A stretch of DNA of 36,189 nucleotides from a virus (lineage: Duplodnaviria > Caudoviricetes). Location of the stretch: the IMG/VR virus record IMGVR_UViG_3300005077_000086, positions 1 through 36,189 of that record; one strand, 5' to 3'. A program made the position numbers and the translations under genes. Below are positions 91 through 36,189 of the stretch, in pieces; the first letter of the stretch is position 1; each line of letters opens with the position of its first letter. The notes under the pieces are model-generated. The model was not told the origin of the DNA and searched no databases. It was given only the letters and a program-made list of their open reading frames with translations.

Positions 91-190
91 TCATATAACT
101 ATTCAAGCGTGATCCGATGTGACCGGAACGAGATGTTAATGTCAACAAAACGATATAATCCGGTCATATTGGATACGCTTTGTTATATGA
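91..190. mobile_element. attC-like recombination hairpin (site F)
   Basis: TCATATAAC(91-99)…GTTATATGA(182-190) outer inverted repeat; inner stem AAGCGTgATCCGATGTGACCGGA / TCCGGTCATATTGGATACGCTT with one extrahelical G. Confidence 0.8.
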
Positions 191-257
191 CGTGGCGATT
201 GAAGCAAAAAAATTATTTAGTGTGAGGCAGGACGCCGAACACGTAGGGAGGATTAGA

Positions 258-968
258 ATGTCAGAAAAAATAATAGATAAAAATTATGGAAGCATACCTC
301 ATTTATCGACAAGTAAATTGACGCAACAAGCTGACAAGAAAATACATGAAGGTCAGGAAAAAATATTAACAGAAAAAGAAAGAGACTGGAAAGATACAAT
401 AATAATTACTGAAAAAATAGATGGGTCGAATGTCGGTGTAATTAAAAAGGATGGTCGGTTGATTGCTCTATCGAGAGCTGGATATGATGTTAATAGTTCA
501 CCATACGATCAGCATAAATTATTTTATAAATATGTTTATAATAATGTGTCAATGTTTTCATGGCTTCCTGATGGATGGCGTGTTGTGGGAGAGTGGTGCA
601 TAATGGCACATGGGACGATTTATGATATATCAGGTGAAAGCCCGTTCGTTGCATTTGATATTGTGAATCAAGAAGACGAAAGAATAACATATATTGATTT
701 TATAAAAATATGTTCTAAATATTCAATTCCGACAGTCCCGCTTTTACATATAGGGCAGGCAGTTAGCATTAAAAATGCTGTTAAGCTAATGGGCAGTGGT
801 CACTACGGAAAACCGGACAAACCAGAAGGTTTCGTTTGTCGGGTTGAAAGAGAGGGTAAGGTCGATTTTTTGGCAAAGTGGGTTAGACATGACAAAGAAG
901 ACGGGAAATATCTTGATAATATTATATGGAACACGGGTAGCGAGCCATGGAGGGCGAGCCAGAGTTAA
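258..968 (+). CDS. ATP-dependent RNA ligase family protein (Rnl2-like nucleotidyltransferase), cassette cargo
   Basis: Motif I TEKIDGSN (KxDG), GEW, FVAFDI, EGFV, terminal AKWV; start moved to ATG 258 after GGGAGG; bracketed by GTTATATGACGTGGC(182-196)/GCCATGTCATATAAC(969-983). Confidence 0.8.
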   Translation: MSEKIIDKNYGSIPHLSTSKLTQQADKKIHEGQEKILTEKERDWKDTIIITEKIDGSNVGVIKKDGRLIALSRAGYDVNSSPYDQHKLFYKYVYNNVSMFSWLPDGWRVVGEWCIMAHGTIYDISGESPFVAFDIVNQEDERITYIDFIKICSKYSIPTVPLLHIGQAVSIKNAVKLMGSGHYGKPDKPEGFVCRVEREGKVDFLAKWVRHDKEDGKYLDNIIWNTGSEPWRASQS

Positions 969-1037
969 GCCATGTCATATAACAGTTGGTGTGCGTCTGT
1001 TTTGACGTATATTATAAAAAAATAGGAGAATAAACGA

Positions 1038-3035: not shown

Positions 3036-6000
3036 TTATCTCCTGTATTTTTTTGCTGCCTCTCTGTATTTTGAACTGTATTTCTTTCCCGCTTCCCTGT
3101 AATAATCAGCCGCTGTTTTCGGTTTCTCATACATAAAATCAGGTACAGTTTTGTCCCAGAATTTTTCAGGCAATCCGTCAGTTACTAATTTTGTTGCTGG
3201 AAATACATCTTGTATTCCTTCAACTTCTCTTTTTCCGGATATTATATCTTTTAATGTCCTTCCCCATATCGGAGTATATGACGCTGCCACTCCTGCCATG
3301 TGTCTGAATTTATCAGGAGTTTCTTTTTTCTTCACAGAATCAACAATACCGAATATAAGCGATAACGCATCACCGTGAGCAGCACCCATGTGAGTATCTT
3401 TGTAATTAATTGTTGATAACATCCACTCGAACGTACCCAATGTCCCTGCGACTCCTATTGATTTCCATATCCAGTCCCAGGCGTCTTTCGGCAAATCACG
3501 TCCCGATATTAAGGATCGTGCAAGAATAACAGGCTGTGCCCCTATTCCTGCTGCAATAAGCAGTTTTGTCATTGGCAGAAGATTACCCATTTTTGCTTCC
3601 TGCCATACAACATCTCTTATGGTATGCTTTGTTTTTTCATAAGAGAATGACTTAAACTGTGTCAATACCCGCATCCATGGAGATTTATTGAATATTTCAG
3701 GAAGGTCTTCAAAGTGCGCACGGTAGTTTGTATTGACTTCCATCTGCCGTGCCATACGCATTTTATCAGCTTCAGTCAAAAAATATTTTCCATTGGCATC
3801 TTTCGACAATTTACCGAGGGACATATCAACACGTTCCATCCTGTTAATAAACATTCTCGCCCGGTGTATCGACATCTTTTCACCTGCCGATAATCTCAAT
3901 CCTGAATTCTCTGCCATCTTGTTAAACTTTCTCCATGATCCGGCAGTATTCAGTCTATCTGCGAGTTTCAATGTTTTCGCATCGTATGTATTGACTTTAT
4001 CTACCAGTGCCTCTGCATGAAATAATCCTGTCATTATACCTATATATCGAGACCGTATATCAGCAGACCTGAATTTAGTCAGTTTTAAAAATCCCTGCCC
4101 CGTGGTTGACTCTCCATACAATGATCCAAGAATTGTCTTATGTGCTACCCTGAGAGAAGACGTTGCTCTGTTTGAGAACTCTTTCGCCTGTTCCCTTGTC
4201 ATGGTTTTACTGATTCCAGACATTGCACTCAAAGCCTTAAAATATGACTTCGCTGAAGAATGAACAAGCGGTTCCAGCATCTGTGTAATCTGTCCAAGCT
4301 GAGAAAGCCCCATCTTTGATACTATTTCAAAATTTATTATTTTATTCGCCAACCATTGAGACTCAAGATCAGTTGGTCTGTTTCTGTTTGATACAGTATC
4401 AGCAAGGTCAACCGCACGTTTCATTATCCCTTCCGCTGTTCGGGGATCATACCGTGTTCCGGCTTCCATGTTTATATCAATTAATAAATTTTTCAATATA
4501 CTATCATCAGCACCGAAAGCCCGTGCCCGGGCCACCCTGTTTCCTGCGTCCTCAAAATATTCCATCATTATTTCGACAGGCTTTTCAGTATAATAAAACT
4601 TTTCAGGCATATTCTTGAATTCACGAGTAATTTGAAATGATGACATTTTTTCATATTTTCCCGTGCTTGAATCAACATCTGTTTTACTTTTTAAATATTC
4701 AAGTGCACGTTCAATGTTTGCTTTTTTTGCATCAAGAGCATAATCAACTTCAACTTTAGAATCTGGATACATCCTCTGTAATTCTTCACCCATCCATTCA
4801 AGAAACTCTGCCCTGTTTTTACCGCCTTCTTGAAATTCTGGTTTAATAACATGACGATAATATGTCTGTAATTCTTCAACGGTAAGTCCATATTTTTTAA
4901 GTTCAGCAACAACAGATTTATTTATTGTATCAAGTTCAGTTGCAAGCTGAACAACACGTTCAGATGGTTGACCTGCCACTTCATTATATCGTTCAGGTGT
5001 TAGGTCAAGAAAACGTATTGCCTGTTTCTGTTCTTCTGGTGTATATTTTTTTACAGCATTATCAAAATCCTGCATCCAGTTCGCGGCGTATTGTTCCTCA
5101 TAAAGCCTCATGTTTTTAATTACTTTATCCATGAGCGCTCCGGCTTTTGTTTCCTTCGCTACCATCGCACCTCTTGACGTAACGAATGTTTTATTAAATA
5201 ACTTATATGCTCTGTTAATTTCATCCATTGTTGTTTCTGACTTCAAATTTCCGGCAGCGACATCCTCTGCTATTTTTAATATAGCAGGGTCTTCTGAAAA
5301 TGACTGACGTATTTCTCTTGCCGTATCCTCTGTGACAAAATTCTGTCCCAATATTTCACGTTCTTTTGCCTGAAGTTTTTCAAGTTCAATAGCTTTGTCT
5401 GCTTCTTTAATATCACTTCTCACTACTTCACGTCTTTTTGCTTCAATCTCTTTCAACACCTGCGTCTGTGCCGCTGTTTTTTCTATCCGGGTTCTGCGCT
5501 CTGTTGCTTTTTCTGCTATCATTGAATCATATTCAGCCTTAGACCACCTCCCCCATTCCGGTTGATTGTCATAGCTTTTATATTCGTTTTCAATGTTTCT
5601 GAACACTTCATATTCAAAGTCATTCAATTGTGTCATTATATCATGATAATCAGGATCATAACGCCGAGTCAATTCTGCCTGTACTTTTCTTAATACTTCC
5701 TGCTGGTATCGTGGTTTGAGATTAACAAAATCAGGATTTTCCAGTGAACCTTTGTCCAGGTTTCCAAAGTCATTGTATATCGAAACAGGGTCTTGCAACC
5801 TGTCAATTGAATCCAACATTGTCTGAACAGAAGAATCGATCTTTTCCCTGATCTTCGGTTGGGAACCACGCCTCATCATTTCTCGAATATCAAAACTTTC
5901 TGCTTTATCTTTTTTTACTTCCTGTGCTTTTTTCGCGCTTTCCTCAATAAATGCTTTCGCGCTTTCAGGACTTTTTAATATATCAACAAGAACTTTTCTT

Positions 6001-13029: not shown

Positions 13030-14357
13030 GCTGAATAATATAAAATCTCAACCACATAATATAAATCAGATGTTATTACACCATCTAATGACATGACCAA
13101 ATTAGTGTCATTCCATGAAAAATTTTGAACCACATGATCACCAGTAGTATCATTAAAATTTTGCATAAAAGTAGTACCGCCATCATCTGTATATCTGAAT
13201 CCTGCTATGCCTAAAATATACACTCTTCCATTAGCAATACCATGTGCAGCCTCTCCGTACGCTGCTCCACTCACGACGCTTATAGTAAGTGTCTTAATAT
13301 GTAAAGAAGTATCGGTGGTATTCGACCCAATAGTTCCCACGCCACCTCTTCTTAATGCACCTGCAACACTTATAGAGCCATTAATAAAAACATCTTTATA
13401 TATCCCCACACCACCCCCAACTATTAATGCACCCGTCGCATATGATGTTGAATTTGTAGTGTTGGATATGGTCGTAGCACCCGCAAGTGTAGCTGCTCCC
13501 AAATTAGTAATAGTACAATACTCCGTGCTTTCATCTTTAATAACAAATGCTTTCCCGGTAGCCGTAGCTTTAAGATGTATACCACCTGCCACAACAGCCG
13601 GACTTGTTTCCCCGCCAGTTGCTATTTTTCCGGATGAGTTAATTCTAACTCTTTCGCTCCCACCTGTACTTATGGCAACAGTATCAGCAGCAGGGAACCA
13701 TATTCCCGTATTTGCATCACCCGTTGGGTATATTGCCGGAAGGGCCGCCGAACCTGCCGAAGTAACAATCGTACTCGTAAATGTCGCACGACCAGTTACA
13801 CTAAGAGTGCTGCCCAAAGTAACAGGCCCCGCCACGTCAAGAGTGCCAGCCGTAGTAATAGCTCCGGTTACTCCGAGTGTACCCCCAACAGTCGTGTTCC
13901 CATTCACCGCTGTTACTATAAATTTATTCGTATTTATCGTCAAGTTGCCAGTTACGGCAAGAGTACTCGCCATAGTAACAGCTCCGCTTATTGTTGCAGT
14001 TGTGCATATCAACGGAGTTGAATCACTGCCAATACTCGTTCCACTGGTTATCTGTACGGCACTCCCGCCGCTTTCAGAAATATAAAACAATTCAGCTTTT
14101 GAAGCATCATCCGAAACATACAATCTTCCAGCATTTGCAATACCAGACGGAGCGGAGCCTGTTGTGAGTGTCACCTGCTTATGTGTGCCGTCCTGCTGAT
14201 ATGCAGAAGCGGTTGCGGTAGCAATCCCCCAGTTATGGTCTAAATCCATACGTTCATCAATATCTTTCCTTAAATACTGTATTTCTTGATAACCGAGTCC
14301 GGCCTGCTCCGTAGGCGCTGGCCTGGTATTGCTCCACTCTCTTGTATGACCTGCCAT
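13026..14357 (-). CDS. tail fibre / tailspike protein 2
   Basis: Thr/Gly/Ala-rich beta repeats (GTLGVTG, STLSVTG, GALIVGGGVGI); shares a module with the 14516-15895 gene. Confidence 0.75.
   Translation of the reverse strand: MAGHTREWSNTRPAPTEQAGLGYQEIQYLRKDIDERMDLDHNWGIATATASAYQQDGTHKQVTLTTGSAPSGIANAGRLYVSDDASKAELFYISESGGSAVQITSGTSIGSDSTPLICTTATISGAVTMASTLAVTGNLTINTNKFIVTAVNGNTTVGGTLGVTGAITTAGTLDVAGPVTLGSTLSVTGRATFTSTIVTSAGSAALPAIYPTGDANTGIWFPAADTVAISTGGSERVRINSSGKIATGGETSPAVVAGGIHLKATATGKAFVIKDESTEYCTITNLGAATLAGATTISNTTNSTSYATGALIVGGGVGIYKDVFINGSISVAGALRRGGVGTIGSNTTDTSLHIKTLTISVVSGAAYGEAAHGIANGRVYILGIAGFRYTDDGGTTFMQNFNDTTGDHVVQNFSWNDTNLVMSLDGVITSDLYYVVEILYYSA
13675..13740. repeat. 66-bp exact direct repeat shared by the two fibre genes (copy 1)
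   Basis: GCAACAGTATCAGCAGCAGGGAACC…TATATTGCCGGA identical to 15336-15401. Confidence 0.9.
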
Positions 14358-14519: not shown

Positions 14520-15895
14520 ACTGCCTCCAGTTTTTCAACTTTAATTTGTAATTTTTGAATAGCTCCATACATGGCCGATATAATAGAATCAATATTTAAA
14601 TTTTTACAATCTTCAATTGTATCATATATTTTTTCAATCTTTGTCTCAATTTCACCTTTTTCATTTTCAACTGAAATTTCTTTTTCACCGACGGGAACAG
14701 TGCCGATAAACTTCTGAACACCAACAGATTTCTGAAAAATCTTTTCAACATCATCAGCCACCCACCCGACCTTATGCCGGTCTTTATGTATTTCGGCATC
14801 AAAATAATTATCGCGTAATTTATAATATTTCAATGGAAGATTTTTAACATTATTATAACAAATATCAAGATCAGCGTCCTCGATATTTTCTTTTAATCGT
14901 GCATCACAGGTATTCGTCCATGTCGTGCCGGTTGACAAACCAGCAGACCCGGTCACATCTAATTTATGAGATCCTGAAGGCGTCATCGCAATTCCCATGT
15001 TACCGGATATGTCTATTCTCGCTCTTTCTGTAGGAGTATATGCAATATCTTGCGTTAATGAGCCATTTGCATAAAATTTTATAGCTCCCTGTTGCAGTAA
15101 TATAAAACATGCGTTACCAGTTGAAATCGGAATGTACTGATAAGATGTGTTGTAGAACATATTGTTGCAGATCATTATCGGTGAGTTGGCATCCTCTGAT
15201 TTATAAGCCATGATATTACTATTTCCGCCCATTTGCAACGACGCATAATATGTATTTATAGTTTCAGGAATTTTACTTATCCCCACATTTGCGGATGCGT
15301 CAACTCGAACTCTTTCACTTCCTCCGGTACTTATAGCAACAGTATCAGCAGCAGGGAACCATATTCCCGTATTTGCATCACCCGTTGGGTATATTGCCGG
15401 AGTAGCTGCTAAACCTGCAGAAGTAACTATCTTGTTTGTGAATGTCGCAAGACCAGTTACACTAAGAGTGCCAGCCACAGAAGTATTTCCACTTGAAGCG
15501 GCTACATTAAATTTATTTGTAGCTACTGAAAAATCGCCAACAACATTTAATTTCTTTGCTATATAAACACCGCCGGCCACTGTTAATGCACCGGAAGTCC
15601 CAGACCATTCCGTAGTATTTGATATTGAAGTTACGCCTGAAGCTCCTATTGTAGTAAATGTCGCTGCTCCCGCAGCGTTCAGCGTTCCACCAATATACGC
15701 TGCTCCAGCAACGCCAAGACCTCCAGAAATAACGGCTGCGCCGGTTATCGTACTCGTGCTCACCGCTGTATCAGTTACACGCAGTGATTCTGTTGTCGTC
15801 CTTCCGGTTACATTCAAAGACGTTACTTCATACACCCCGGAGCCTGAGGACCCGGCAGTTATTAAATTGCTATATGGATTGTCTTTAACAGTCAT
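14516..15895 (-). CDS. tail fibre protein 1 with C-terminal peptidase S74 chaperone domain
   Basis: Beta-repeat fibre body; C-terminal TCDARLKENI…LPLKYY…VGWVADDVE…MYGAIQKL. Confidence 0.8.
   Translation of the reverse strand: MTVKDNPYSNLITAGSSGSGVYEVTSLNVTGRTTTESLRVTDTAVSTSTITGAAVISGGLGVAGAAYIGGTLNAAGAATFTTIGASGVTSISNTTEWSGTSGALTVAGGVYIAKKLNVVGDFSVATNKFNVAASSGNTSVAGTLSVTGLATFTNKIVTSAGLAATPAIYPTGDANTGIWFPAADTVAISTGGSERVRVDASANVGISKIPETINTYYASLQMGGNSNIMAYKSEDANSPIMICNNMFYNTSYQYIPISTGNACFILLQQGAIKFYANGSLTQDIAYTPTERARIDISGNMGIAMTPSGSHKLDVTGSAGLSTGTTWTNTCDARLKENIEDADLDICYNNVKNLPLKYYKLRDNYFDAEIHKDRHKVGWVADDVEKIFQKSVGVQKFIGTVPVGEKEISVENEKGEIETKIEKIYDTIEDCKNLNIDSIISAMYGAIQKLQIKVEKLEAV
15336..15401. 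repeat. 66-bp exact direct repeat shared by the two fibre genes (copy 2)
   Basis: Identical to 13675-13740; flanks remain similar over about 160 bp. Confidence 0.9.
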
Positions 15896-30120: not shown

Positions 30121-30387
30121 ATGGGAATTGAACAGGACATTAAAACAATTATCACACTGCTGGAGTCTATCGCAGGAAAAAAGGCAGCAGCACAGATAGA
30201 GACAGCGTTCAGCGGAGCTGGTATCCCGGCAGCCACAACCGATTTCGCAACGATCAAATCAACAATACCGTCTTTGTCTAAAGACCAGATAAATCAATGG
30301 TCTGTGATGTGTATTGAAAAAGCAGTCAGCGACAAGCAAAAGGGAGCAATAGCTAAAATATTTAAAACAGCCCTGGGGGGACAATGA
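30121..30387 (+). CDS. hypothetical protein
   Basis: 88 aa; AGGAGG RBS. Confidence 0.6.
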   Translation: MGIEQDIKTIITLLESIAGKKAAAQIETAFSGAGIPAATTDFATIKSTIPSLSKDQINQWSVMCIEKAVSDKQKGAIAKIFKTALGGQ

Positions 30388-31317
30388 AAATAACAAACAA
30401 TTACAATCTCCCTCAGAGTATTGTTAATGCAATAAGTTTCGATGAGCGCGTCCCGAAAGAAAATTATATATCAGTCACCAGACTAATAGATTCTCCACTC
30501 ATCCACCAGCTTATGAAAGAACATTGGGACGACATCAAGCAGGATGCGTCAAGTATGCTATGGTCACTGCTCGGTAAGGCCGTACATTATGTACTCGATA
30601 ATTTTATGTATGAAATAAAAGAATATGAGGCATCAGATGAAGATATTATCAAGATTGAAAATATTTTATCTAAAGCATCGCAACAAATACTGGACTGAGC
30701 GCAGATTTAATCATGAAGTAGACGGATGGATTGTTAGCGGTCAGCCGGATTTATACAATGATGGTGTTATTGAAGATTACAAGGTAACATCATACTGGGT
30801 GTTTCTAAACGGCGTCAAGCCTGAATGGGAACGTCAGCTAAACGTCTACGCCTGGGGTACACGCAAGGACGGATACGATGTCACCGGGCTTAAGATTCAC
30901 GCAATACTGAGAGACTGGCAGCAGGGTAAAATTTATGAATCAGGTTATCCGTCAATACCGTTCGTGACGTATGATGTTCCGCTCTGGACATTTGAGGAAC
31001 AGGAAGCGTATGTTCGCGAACGAGTCAGGATACACAAAGAACCTGCCGGACAATGCACTTCCGAAGAGCGATGGGCACGGGCTGATACATGGGCTGTCAA
31101 AAAACTTGGACGTAAATCGGCAATAAGGGTATTCGATAGTCAGTCAGAAGCAATGACGTATTTCAATAAAACATTCAGAGTACCGTCAGAAATGAATAAT
31201 CATTATATTAAAAAACGTCCAGGCAAAAACGCAAGGTGCGAAGGTTATTGTCAGGTGTCAGAATTTTGTCCGTATTACAAAAAGGAGACTGTTGATGAAA
31301 TTGAACCTGGTATTTAA
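30384..31317 (+). pseudogene. Cas4-like PD-(D/E)XK exonuclease split by a +1 frameshift
   Basis: ORF 30384-30698 carries ISVTRL…LGKAVH; ORF 30625-31317 carries ERRF…SGQPD…EDYK…QLNVY…C…YCQVSEFC; removing one base near 30671-30675 joins them. Confidence 0.7.
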
Positions 31318-33247: not shown

Positions 33248-33529
33248 ATGGCAAAGAAAATAACAGAAGAAACAAGGATTAAACGTGAAATCAAAGAATA
33301 CTTGTCTGCCATGGGATGGTTTCACTTTCCGATTACTCAGGGTCTCGGAAGTTATCACGGTATTCCTGATATTATTGCTTGTAAAAACGGACAGGTTTTG
33401 TTCATCGAAGTCAAAACTGCTAAAGGCCGGCTGTCTGATTATCAAAAAATTTTTCAGCAGAACATTGAGGAGCATGGAGGATGCTATGTCGTTGCAAGAG
33501 GATATAAAAGCCTGGAACCATTTATGTGA
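33248..33529 (+). CDS. VRR-NUC domain nuclease (resolvase-like)
   Basis: GIPDIIA…LFIEVKTAKGRLSDYQ PD-(D/E)XK signature. Confidence 0.85.
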   Translation: MAKKITEETRIKREIKEYLSAMGWFHFPITQGLGSYHGIPDIIACKNGQVLFIEVKTAKGRLSDYQKIFQQNIEEHGGCYVVARGYKSLEPFM

Positions 33530-33770
33530 AATATGCCACAACCGGCAGGCAACGCAAAGACATCATAAATTTTCACAAACAAAACAGAATAGGAAAAAAT
33601 ATGGAAAATTGCTGGATGAAAGATTTAATATTTTATATGTATGTGCTGACTGCCATAGTAGTCATGCTAAAATTACTGACGAACATAGATTGACCGAACA
33701 GCAGTTTATTAATTTGGTGCGTAAATTAACTGAACAGGGTAACGGAAGTTTGCGAAGCAAATTTACGTGA
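33486..33770 (+). CDS. HNH-like zinc-binding endonuclease; C-terminus reads into the first att-like hairpin
   Basis: ATG 33486 after GGAGG; CEIC…HH…N…CADCH. Confidence 0.65.
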   Translation: MSLQEDIKAWNHLCEICHNRQATQRHHKFSQTKQNRKKYGKLLDERFNILYVCADCHSSHAKITDEHRLTEQQFINLVRKLTEQGNGSLRSKFT

Positions 33771-33801
33771 GCGATAGCGAACCCGTTACCCGTTGTTAAG
33801 T
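33723..33801. mobile_element. attC-like hairpin (site A, first of the array)
   Basis: TTAAC…GGGTAACGG/CCGTTACCC…GTTAAGT with internal TTTGC-GAA-GCAAA mini-hairpin. Confidence 0.75.
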
Positions 33802-33835
33802 GATGTAATTTTGCGATATTAACAGGAGGATTATT

Positions 33836-34054
33836 ATGATGACACAAAGCGGGCCGGTATGCGATATTTGCGGTAAATATATTTTACCGATAGGCGATGA
33901 ACGGGTACATGGCTTCAGGATTAAAGGCATTGACGCTGATATGGTTTGTGACAACGGATGTAAAATAATATTAGATAAAGCAATAGAAATTCAGGACTGG
34001 AAAGTATTACCGGAAGGCCCGCTTCGTAAGGCTTTTTCGGATGCAACGAGTTGA
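33836..34054 (+). CDS. small zinc-binding hypothetical protein, cassette cargo
   Basis: AGGAGG RBS; CDIC…CDNGC; bracketed by GTTAAGTGATGTAATTTTGC(33795)/GCAAAATTATTTCACTTAAC(34055-34074), 18/20 complementary. Confidence 0.65.
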   Translation: MMTQSGPVCDICGKYILPIGDERVHGFRIKGIDADMVCDNGCKIILDKAIEIQDWKVLPEGPLRKAFSDATS

Positions 34055-34067
34055 GCAAAATTATTTC

Positions 34068-34195
34068 ACTTAACAGATACGGCATAGACGAAGGAGGATA
34101 GAATGGAAATATGTAAATCACACATGGAATGTTTTACAAAGATATGTAGTTTATGTAAGGATTATGAGCCTCTATCGTCTTATGCCGTGTTAGGT
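34068..34195. mobile_element. attC-like hairpin (site B) containing the RBS and start codon of the next ORF
   Basis: ACTTAAC…ACGGCATAGACGA(34079-34091)/TCGTCtTATGCCGT(34175-34188)-GTTAGGT; AGGAGG at 34092, ATG at 34103. Confidence 0.8.
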
Positions 34196-34453
34196 GATGC
34201 GGCGGAGCTACAAGAGGAGTTGGCCGCCTTTACACATAGCCAATGGTCTGGATGGATGATGTATTTATTTAGCAAATGCAAGAGCACGACTGACGGCAAA
34301 GATAATGTCAGTATGATTATTCCGAAATGGGCAGTAGATAGGTGGAGGCGACAAATGAATACTGAATATAAAGACTTACCAGAGGAAGAAAAGGAAAGCA
34401 ACAAACAAGAGGCGGCCAAGATGATGCAAATAATTATCAGCCGTTTCGCCTAA
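34103..34453 (+). CDS. hypothetical phage protein (RyR-repeat-like motif), cassette cargo
   Basis: LAAFTHSQWSGWM…RWRRQMNTEYKDLPEEEKES; stop codon is the TAA of the next TAAC. Confidence 0.6.
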   Translation: MEICKSHMECFTKICSLCKDYEPLSSYAVLGDAAELQEELAAFTHSQWSGWMMYLFSKCKSTTDGKDNVSMIIPKWAVDRWRRQMNTEYKDLPEEEKESNKQEAAKMMQIIISRFA

Positions 34454-34515
34454 CATGCAGAGCTAAACGACGTGGCGAAGCCATGTAGCGAAGCGGCGTT
34501 TAGCGAGTGTTAAGT
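34448..34515. mobile_element. attC-like hairpin (site C)
   Basis: GCCTAAC…GCTAAACG/CGTTTAGC…GTTAAGT with two GC-GAA-GC mini-hairpins. Confidence 0.8.
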
Positions 34516-34550
34516 GAAGTTGCCGACATGACAGCAACAAGGGAGTGAAT

Positions 34551-35128
34551 ATGAAATAACTGCGGTTGAAATTGATGAAAATATAGCAAATATTTATAAA
34601 TATTTTTACCCAACTGACACGGTAGTTGTTGACGATGCCCACGAGTATTTATTAAATAATTTTAAGGGATTTGACTTTATATGGAGTTCTCCACCGTGTC
34701 CAAGCCATAGCAGGGCAAGTCTTTCCCTTGCTGGTCATAATGTTTATAGATTCCCAGATATGAAATTATATGAAGAGATAATATTTTTGAAACAGTTTTT
34801 TAAAGGGAAATATGTTATTGAAAATGTGATACCATATTATGATGTATTAGTTCATCCGACAATTGAGATAGATAGACACTTGTTTTGGAGTAACTTTGAT
34901 ATTACATATATTGATGTCAAAAGGCATTACAATGTAAATAGAGCAACAAAGGAAATGCTGTCAGAACATCACGGTATAGTATTGCCTGAGTCTGCAAAGG
35001 ATAAGAGGAAGTTATTAAGGAATTGCGTTACGCCATCTGTAGGATTGCATATATTGAATTGTGCAAATAATATCTTTAGCGAGGCACGGATGCCGAGCCT
35101 ATTTGAAAAGGTCGGCAATTTCATATAA
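34551..35128 (+). pseudogene. C5-cytosine DNA methyltransferase lacking its N-terminal motif I, cassette cargo
   Basis: Frame from 34553: EITAVEID…DFIWSSPPCPSHS…YVIENV…LRNCV (motifs II, IV, VI, X); ATG 34551 reads ATG-AAA-TAA; no in-frame start or FxGxG-type motif upstream. Confidence 0.75.
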
Positions 35129-35178
35129 CATTCATAGGTGCGCGATGCGCGCAGCGTTTCGCGTACCGAGTGTTATAT
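35123..35178. mobile_element. attC-like hairpin (site D)
   Basis: ATATAAC…GGTGCGCGA/TCGCGTACC-GAGT-GTTATAT. Confidence 0.8.
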
Positions 35179-35244
35179 GCTGTGCCGGGATTGATAGAAT
35201 AAAGGCGGTGGAGGCCACGGATGTACGGAGCCGAATGAAATAGG

Positions 35245-36093
35245 ATGAAGCTAATTAGAGTGTTTCCACGAAAGACAAACGCAACGCCTGACGACGAAGG
35301 TGTGCGGTTTACCGAGCCGGGATTATTTGACGAGGCCGACGAAGTGCGTGTATCCGTTACATGGACATGGGACAAGCAGAGAGGGGAAGAACTGGCCGGG
35401 GCGTGGAGAGCCGTTACAGATAAGATTATGATCGGTGGCCCTGCTTATGATGATCCGGGCGGTGAATTTGAGCCGGGAATGTATGTCAAAAAAGGGTATG
35501 TTATGACGAGCCGTGGCTGCCCGAATAAGTGCTGGTTCTGTTCTGTTCCGAAGCGCGAAGGGAACATTAGGGAGCTTGAAATAAAAGACGGGTATAATAT
35601 TCTTGATAGTAATTTGCTGGCCTGTTCGCCTGATCATATCACGGGTGTGTTTAATATGTTGAAGCGACAGAAAGATAAGCCAAGGTTCACCGGAGGACTT
35701 GAAGCGGCACGGATGAAGCCGTGGATTGCCGATCAGTTAAGGGAGTTGAAGCCGCACGTTGCATATTTTGCGTATGACACACCGGACGATTACGAACCGC
35801 TTGTTGATGCGGTTAAAATGTTACGGGATGCAGGGGCTATGTATGATCGGGTTTATTCGTGCTATGTTCTGATAGGATATGGGGGTGACACGATAGAGAA
35901 GGCCGAAAAACGACTACAACAGGTTTTAACGCTGGATGTCATGCCGATGGCTATGCTATTCAATAAGGCCGATGGCAGGGAAGATCGTAGTAAATGGATT
36001 AAATTTCAGCGTGAGTATGCTAACCGGATTATTGTTGGTTCTAAATTAACCGCCGCCAGGACGGCGGCGCATAAGGGCGCGAATTGCATATAA
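35245..36093 (+). CDS. radical SAM protein, cassette cargo
   Basis: TSRGCPNKCWFCSVP (CX3CX2C), LDSNLLA, CYVLIGY; stop codon is the TAA of the next TAAC. Confidence 0.85.
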   Translation: MKLIRVFPRKTNATPDDEGVRFTEPGLFDEADEVRVSVTWTWDKQRGEELAGAWRAVTDKIMIGGPAYDDPGGEFEPGMYVKKGYVMTSRGCPNKCWFCSVPKREGNIRELEIKDGYNILDSNLLACSPDHITGVFNMLKRQKDKPRFTGGLEAARMKPWIADQLRELKPHVAYFAYDTPDDYEPLVDAVKMLRDAGAMYDRVYSCYVLIGYGGDTIEKAEKRLQQVLTLDVMPMAMLFNKADGREDRSKWIKFQREYANRIIVGSKLTAARTAAHKGANCI

Positions 36094-36155
36094 CATGCAG
36101 AGCTAAACGACGTGGCGAAGCCATGTAGCGAAGCGGCGTTTAGCGAGTGTTAAGT
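36088..36155. mobile_element. attC-like hairpin (site E), same body as site C
   Basis: From TAAC onward identical to 34451-34515. Confidence 0.75.
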
Positions 36156-36189
36156 GAAGTTGCCGACATGACAGCAACAAGGGAGTGAA
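36091..36189 (+). repeat. 99-bp exact direct repeat of 34451-34549 at the contig end
   Basis: TAACATGCAG…GGGAGTGAA identical in both places; upstream bases differ (GCC vs ATA). Confidence 0.95.

Follow-up and report, generated by a model that had tools for sequence, protein, structure and literature searches.

A hairpin-separated cassette array in a tailed phage

Here we report an array of small genes separated by AAC…GTT hairpins in a 36-kb phage contig, in which the separated units were confirmed to have complementary ends. The window, by which we mean the whole 36,189-nt stretch analysed (IMG/VR record IMGVR_UViG_3300005077_000086, of the class linear and with a completeness of 66%), is a tailed-phage contig encoding terminase, portal, capsid, primase-helicase, and exonuclease genes. 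The cassette array at its right end also appears at its left end (96-995), with the order across 36189/1 joining two ends of a linear, 66% complete record, and the cassette ending at 96-99 starts outside the window (Table 1). The earlier note described an array that opens with a full hairpin and carries no GTT-closed hairpin after its last gene, at position 983; both array ends were recovered, the opening hairpin at 33727-33798, but they come from opposite ends of the record, so that one continuous array is a possible rather than an established reading. A hairpin-less array end was also found inside the single contigs L001, L161, L166, and L097. An ORF with CxxC motifs (33285-33770) lies upstream of the array and ends inside hairpin 1. 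An Rfam search returned no match. Elsewhere in the contig, the exonuclease (phrog_2139, 30384-31317) is split near 30690 into two overlapping frames, and there is a 193-nt repeat at 85% (13627-13819 and 15288-15480) between two tail-fibre-like genes.

Table 1. Features of the cassette array in the window (R2, model built from the phage hairpins)
Feature	Coordinates	Strand	Remarks
Hairpin 1, AAC…GTT, array opener	33727..33798	+	detector; R2 59.6 bits on + (training member)
Cassette gene, 72 aa, no family	33836..34054	+	cassette ends complementary 8/10
Hairpin 2	34071..34192	+	homologous start-containing hairpins in L093, L161
Cassette gene, 116 aa	34103..34453	+	weak RyR-domain match below cut-off (E 0.007)
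Hairpin 3	34451..34512	+	inside first 99-nt repeat copy (34451-34549)
C5 DNA methyltransferase frame	34532..35128	+	PF00145
Hairpin 4	35126..35175	+	hairpin detection
Radical-SAM cassette gene (phrog_9298), 282 aa	35245..36093	+	as cassette in L001, L093, L094, L097, L124, L161
Second copy of hairpin 3 (36091-36152, exact) and methyltransferase leader, contig end	36091..36189	+	
Hairpin 6, opposite contig end	96..185	+	homologous arms precede different gene in L094
RNA ligase cassette gene (likely start 257)	180..968	+	PF09414 E 5e-21; ends complementary 9/10
Hairpin-less terminal site: AAC (981-983), 5-nt spacer, 7-nt L box	977..995	-	

The sites share a common register consisting of AAC, mostly 8 nt, a 7-bp stem, a loop, the returning stem, mostly 5 nt, and GTT. 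Five such sites were observed in 33401-36189, compared with a mean and a maximum of 0 in 100 shuffles. An independent detector reproduced the longer unpaired spacer on the AAC side that the note had reported (5/1 at site 96, 6/3, 4/0, 7/4, and 7/4). The R boxes have the form RYYYAAC and GTTRRRY, and the ends of all five window cassettes are complementary at 7-9 of 10 positions. Matching each GTT start to the AAC end of its own cassette scores 38, the highest value among 120 permutations (mean 27.8). These complementary ends prove the cassettes and leave their polarity undecided. Among 18 related hairpins the L stem covaries: pairing holds in 89% of cells and 37 changes are two-sided, whereas slid controls gave 31-43% and none of 500 shuffles reached this level. 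The 7-bp stem has no bulge, the L-box extrahelical base being absent.

Genes and hairpins are tightly interleaved. The loop of hairpin 2 carries the GGAGG (34093) and the ATG (34103) of the next gene, the frame of which continues through the right arm, in agreement with the earlier observation that this ORF starts within the hairpin; no viral relatives of the ORF appeared in our search. The stop codon is the TAA of TAAC in three genes, among them the gene starting at 34103. The methyltransferase frame lacks a start codon and the first ~17 residues found in its relatives, the region of the SAM-binding motif (N-terminus compared with 8 of 57 relatives), and is therefore probably a pseudogene carried as inactive cargo.

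Boundaries of the mobile unit

The exact 99-nt repeat (34451-34549 and 36091-36189), which had been taken as evidence that the hairpin travels with the downstream gene, begins at TAAC and takes in the hairpin together with the first part of the cassette behind it. Its right edge coincides with the end of the contig, and assemblers often use a word length of 99; only the left edge is therefore informative, and the repeat is probably an assembly end. The junction at 36091 falls at AAC, and the gene upstream of it differs from that at 34451. An exact 55-nt end repeat in the relative L094 also lies at the contig end and begins at TGTT. The end repeat makes a lasso of 34451-36090, which could be a circle of two excised cassettes, a duplication in tandem, or a population variant with a rearranged order.

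More informative boundaries came from relatives of the radical-SAM cassette, for which 9 of 51 metagenome loci were inspected closely (the closest 7 plus 2); among viral relatives a clear cassette was found in 1 of 12 (L001), and the 57 methyltransferase loci were too distantly related to allow a comparison of co-travel. L001 and L161 share a 981-nt block of 99.7% identity; it opens with the AAC of the hairpin upstream and closes at the AAC that follows the gene, and both neighbours differ. L161 also holds one additional AAC-bounded unit of hairpin plus gene that is missing from L124. Overall, junctions at a box between 97-100% identical blocks fall at AAC in three of four cases, with L094 as the exception. 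These comparisons show the boundaries of the unit. The earlier note had placed the crossover at TAA|C; the block edges of near-identical copies lie mostly at AAC, a conserved triplet that does not reveal the exact A|C cut.

Over longer divergence the picture changes. The radical-SAM gene occurs in six contexts with five different upstream hairpins and six different downstream sites. The earlier note had named a downstream hairpin kept by homologous genes as the observation that would speak against it; each of the six contexts has a downstream site of its own, and this objection does not arise. The five upstream hairpins mean that the link between hairpin and gene is not permanent: the proposed co-travel holds in near-identical copies, and in diverged copies the hairpins have been replaced. 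Diverged radical-SAM blocks begin at TGTT (the window against L001, L093, and L161 at 81%; L001 against L093 at 89%), and L001 and L097 (74%) have similar downstream hairpins. In L094 (4843-5000) the radical-SAM gene has the leader of another cassette, joined at a short shared motif, with the result that the two cassette ends are no longer complementary. Two radical-SAM relatives (L002 and L003) lie outside hairpin arrays and are bracketed, in the flanks of 4001-4840, by ~20-nt exact direct repeats, which is a different mode of mobility. Pattern-scan matches proved to be mostly chance, with 2 of 11 (both from the L001 phage), 2 of 27 (phage-like contigs), and 2 of 7 loci being real.

A parallel case is provided by 10 cultured Flavobacterium phages, reached through the methyltransferase match. 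Both partners have AAC at 57 of 65 distinct block edges (left 31/34, right 26/31), no left edge has GTT, and the edges collapse to approximately 7+7 distinct sites. Model R2 does not match the Flavobacterium hairpins, which form a different sequence family, and the edge census therefore serves as an analogy.

Strand polarity and the chromosomal recombinase

The orientation of the sites was assessed with two covariance models. R1 is a canonical attC model built here from 27 sites of two phyla and is distinct from the model of IntegronFinder; R2 was built from the phage hairpins. On the window sites, R1 reached at best 11 bits (E 2.4) and had no strand preference; its top hit among phage loci was L093, with 19.8 bits on the minus strand (E 0.12). 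Matches to R2 were found in 24 of 151 Spirochaetota, 7 of 151 Desulfobacterota, and 4 of 151 Bacteroidota genomes. Among the 50 Spirochaetota matches, all 34 that were callable (17 regions in 12 genomes) lie opposite to the gene ending at the site, as do all five callable matches in the other phyla (11 uncalled). In the phage set 13 sites lie on the same strand, one on the opposite strand, and eight were uncalled. The strand check suggested for covariance-model hits thus shows that the same hairpin family has the textbook polarity in bacteria and the reverse in phage, the phage arrangement being the mirror of the bacterial one.

Folding points in the same direction. Of 22 phage sites, 21 fold more stably on the gene-sense strand, and G:T pairs are more numerous on that strand in 18 vs 2, whereas 54 attC sites beside canonical intI, including two probably mis-oriented ones (L267), have the reverse bias (stability 39 vs 14; G:T 35 vs 4). 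These gene-sense traits match those of the recombining bottom strand as given in passages of PMC5027507, although both the fold and the G:T bias are confounded by a G-rich coding strand. Two other strand markers were rejected in the bacterial control: purine skew had no discrimination (31 vs 23), and counts of GNA loops did not separate the strands.

A candidate enzyme was found beside the chromosomal arrays. In L310, the array starts just upstream of a divergent gene (L310:5204-6295, minus strand) for a 363-aa tyrosine recombinase, which scores 204 bits against the cut-off of 265 for TIGR02249 (IntI), and 186 and 178 bits against cut-offs of 335 and 330 for TIGR02224/5 (XerC/D). The recombinase has 16 close homologs (301 genomes). 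The distance between two catalytic motifs is 59-64 residues in 15/15 close homologs vs 100 in 20/20 measurable IntI, and the I2 insertion is missing, as seen from a gap in alignment A3. A quick tree that recovered 56 of 59 intended rows places the L310 clade with IntI, apart from the XerC/D branch (SH-aLRT 100), and separate XerC/D genes are present in the same genomes. Ten close homologs have >700 nt of DNA upstream, and every one of these has a hairpin there, in two cases at a distance of 9-11 kb; the remaining six homologs are within 400 nt of a contig end. A homolog of the L310 enzyme at E<=1e-55 was detected in only 7 of 24 R2-positive genomes. No canonical IntI was found in the 23 R2-positive genomes screened, and none of the 40 regions taken from around canonical intI matched R2. 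Another group of I2-less recombinases (L343-L354 and L406), 40-44% identical to L310, has no conserved upstream site; hairpins lie downstream in L372 and L373.

The hairpin-less ends of the phage arrays, including 981-995, carry an attI-like pattern on the minus strand in five of five cases. Because the pattern was derived from these phage ends, the independent test is its count on chromosomes: a site composed of an L box, 5 nt, and GTT occurs 127-214 nt upstream of the matched gene in 12 of 16 homologs (shuffled mean 0.45, maximum 5). The chromosomal arrays are thereby shown to be associated with an I2-less recombinase and a conserved attI-like site. By its sequence, the terminal site of the window matches a candidate attI-like site turned round relative to the chromosomal form. 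Just after it, at 989-1010, lies a weak stem rich in wobble pairs that no GTT closes, and similar partial right arms follow the array ends of L166 and L097. Reversed polarity, the central proposal of the earlier note, is supported by co-travel in near-identical cassettes, the strand of model hits, the folding asymmetry, and the attI-like end. The note offered inverted sites or a different recombinase as alternative causes; both appear to be true, given the failure of the canonical attC model and the I2-less recombinase beside chromosomal arrays.

Mechanism, alternatives, and relation to integrons

We consider it probable that the cassettes, each consisting of a hairpin and the gene behind it, are exchanged at AAC on the strand of the gene, likely by a host I2-less tyrosine recombinase related to IntI. 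The gene-sense strand would fold and, as with IntI, be cleaved between the A and the C. The excised circles, each with a hairpin and its gene, would enter at position 983, where the downstream end of the array has an AAC site without a hairpin, and the newest cassettes would therefore sit farthest from the phage promoter. Some hairpins would at the same time provide the ribosome site and the start codon of the next gene. Rarer GTT-side exchange would probably replace hairpins over longer times, and may reflect either a relaxed strand choice in the absence of bulges (passages of PMC2727003 and PMC5027507) or homologous exchange. Should replication and transcription proceed in the same direction, the lagging template would contain the folding strand, an arrangement that raises excision in integrons according to the consulted part of PMC5371416. 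The I2 domain accommodates extrahelical bases (excerpts of PMC4792948), and an I2-less enzyme therefore fits hairpins without the L-box bulge.

The recombinase would be supplied by the host. Neither the 66% complete window contig (G000) nor the complete 34.7-kb phage G001, which shares the radical-SAM cassette, yielded a tyrosine recombinase in searches with PF00589 and for homologs of the L310 enzyme; a phage-borne enzyme is possible given the incompleteness of the window contig, although the complete relative has none. A Spirochaetota host is favoured as the source rather than established, since the hairpin family also occurs in Desulfobacterota and Bacteroidota genomes. The capsid search for naming a host returned none, and the bins that yielded the two real loci of the 27-locus pattern scan, labelled Bacteroidota and Saccharibacteria, were not accepted as hosts.

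Several other explanations were weighed against this reading. An inverted CALIN, in which ordinary attC sites point the opposite way to their genes and are served by a canonical IntI of the host, would account for the integron-like AAC/GTT boxes, the attI-like end, and the complementarity of cassette ends. IntI1 is described in passages of PMC9892861 as recombining five of six phage-borne attC tested and in passages of PMC5027507 as tolerating the removal of extrahelical bases, and one attC beside a canonical intI (L257:6933) has an 8/5 spacer. We regard this explanation as unlikely in view of the scores of at most 11 bits given to the window sites by R1 (27 canonical attC) irrespective of strand, the stems lacking an L-box bulge, and the failure of canonical IntI to co-occur with the hairpin family in 23 genomes or 40 intI regions. 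That both strands are used at similar rates, with hairpins as free modules swapped at either box and owned by neither gene, appears quite unlikely: it agrees with the five upstream and six downstream site types around the radical-SAM gene, with the GTT-side edges in the 81-89% pairs and in L094, and with the relaxation of strand choice on loss of extrahelical bases (PMC5027507 and PMC2727003), but not with AAC at three of four box junctions between 97-100% identical blocks, a Flavobacterium census without any GTT left edge, and consistently polar arrays with an attI-like site at the downstream end only.

Present reshuffling might instead proceed mainly by homologous or microhomology recombination of the phage at shared hairpin arms, the site-specific activity being historical. 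The phage does encode a NinB/Orf-type mediator and an exonuclease, the radical-SAM leader in L094 was swapped at a short shared motif, and the methyltransferase is 5'-truncated. Junctions between near-identical genomes, however, lie within a few bases of AAC (3-6 nt shared) and not along longer arms, which makes this account very improbable. We give the least credence to classical polarity, with the hairpin downstream of the gene, crossover at G|TT, and an artefactual 99-nt repeat. The repeat length does fit the assembler word size, and diverged pairs have GTT-side edges, but the L001/L161 pair largely refutes it, and the AAC-bounded units, the mirror strand, the attI-like site at the downstream end, and the unlike downstream sites in all six radical-SAM contexts speak against it as well.

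The array preferred here, with AAC-bounded units exchanged on the gene's strand, works like an integron and departs from membership in bulge, polarity, and enzyme. Shared with integrons (passages of PMC5027507 and PMC2727003) are the AAC/GTT R boxes, the L stem, the unpaired spacer, the variable loop, complementary cassette ends, a hairpin-less insertion site, and, on chromosomes (L310 and L359), a recombinase gene divergent from the array. Unlike integrons, the hairpins have no L-box extrahelical base and an 8-9/5 spacer, and the enzyme has no I2; the phage genes lie on the folding strand, in place of an attC downstream of the gene and an antisense folding strand, and no integrase gene, adjacent in a complete integron, was found in the 66% complete window or in the complete G001. 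Promoter-facing cassettes have never been observed in mobile or sedentary integrons, according to a passage of PMC5027507.

Phage CALINs, as portrayed in portions of Qi et al. 2023 (PMC9892861) and Cury 2016 (PMC4889954), are similar in being integrase-free clusters of attC-like sites in virulent phages with methyltransferase cargo; unlike the window sites, which score <=11 bits on R1, those of PMC9892861 were found with canonical attC models. The consulted main text of that paper describes no whole arrays with genes opposite to their sites and mentions divergent attC directions in one Polaribacter phage. The nearest comparison for the enzyme is the 'Integron-like' subgroup of tyrosine recombinases (Smyshlyaev 2021, PMC8138268; NCBIfam NF040815), where the consulted sections regard the I2 insertion as indispensable for integrons to function and do not link members without it to cassette arrays. 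Searches of freely readable papers turned up no account of phage arrays in inverted orientation or of cassette systems with an I2-less enzyme, and none was found in the consulted parts of PMC7370490, PMC8352920, PMC8618304, PMC4889954, and PMC3789691.

If the proposed mechanism is true, integron-style capture on folded single strands needs neither the I2 helix nor the L-box bulges that are regarded as defining integron chemistry, which would bear on the origin of integrases from Xer-like enzymes, and lytic phages carrying no recombinase would have a site-specific route to single-gene mosaicism. Such arrays are probably missed by attC-based tools. A wider reading, in which bacteria and lytic phages share a second integron class of I2-less recombinases and bulge-free hairpins, the opposite-strand phage genes act as a firewall, and hairpins serve as swappable start-codon modules, is possible yet doubtful. 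Under such a firewall, a host cassette that entered a phage array would run antisense to the phage's transcription and a phage cassette in a host array would stay silent, while the host enzyme would still serve fast phage shuffling.

The window offers a complete testable set of hairpins, insertion site, and candidate enzyme. The Flavobacterium phages (L083-L092; Lillamy-, Mumin-, and Hattifnattvirus) are a ready experimental system: they are cultured, have known hosts and the reversed layout, and their terminal site occurs with six different upstream neighbours.
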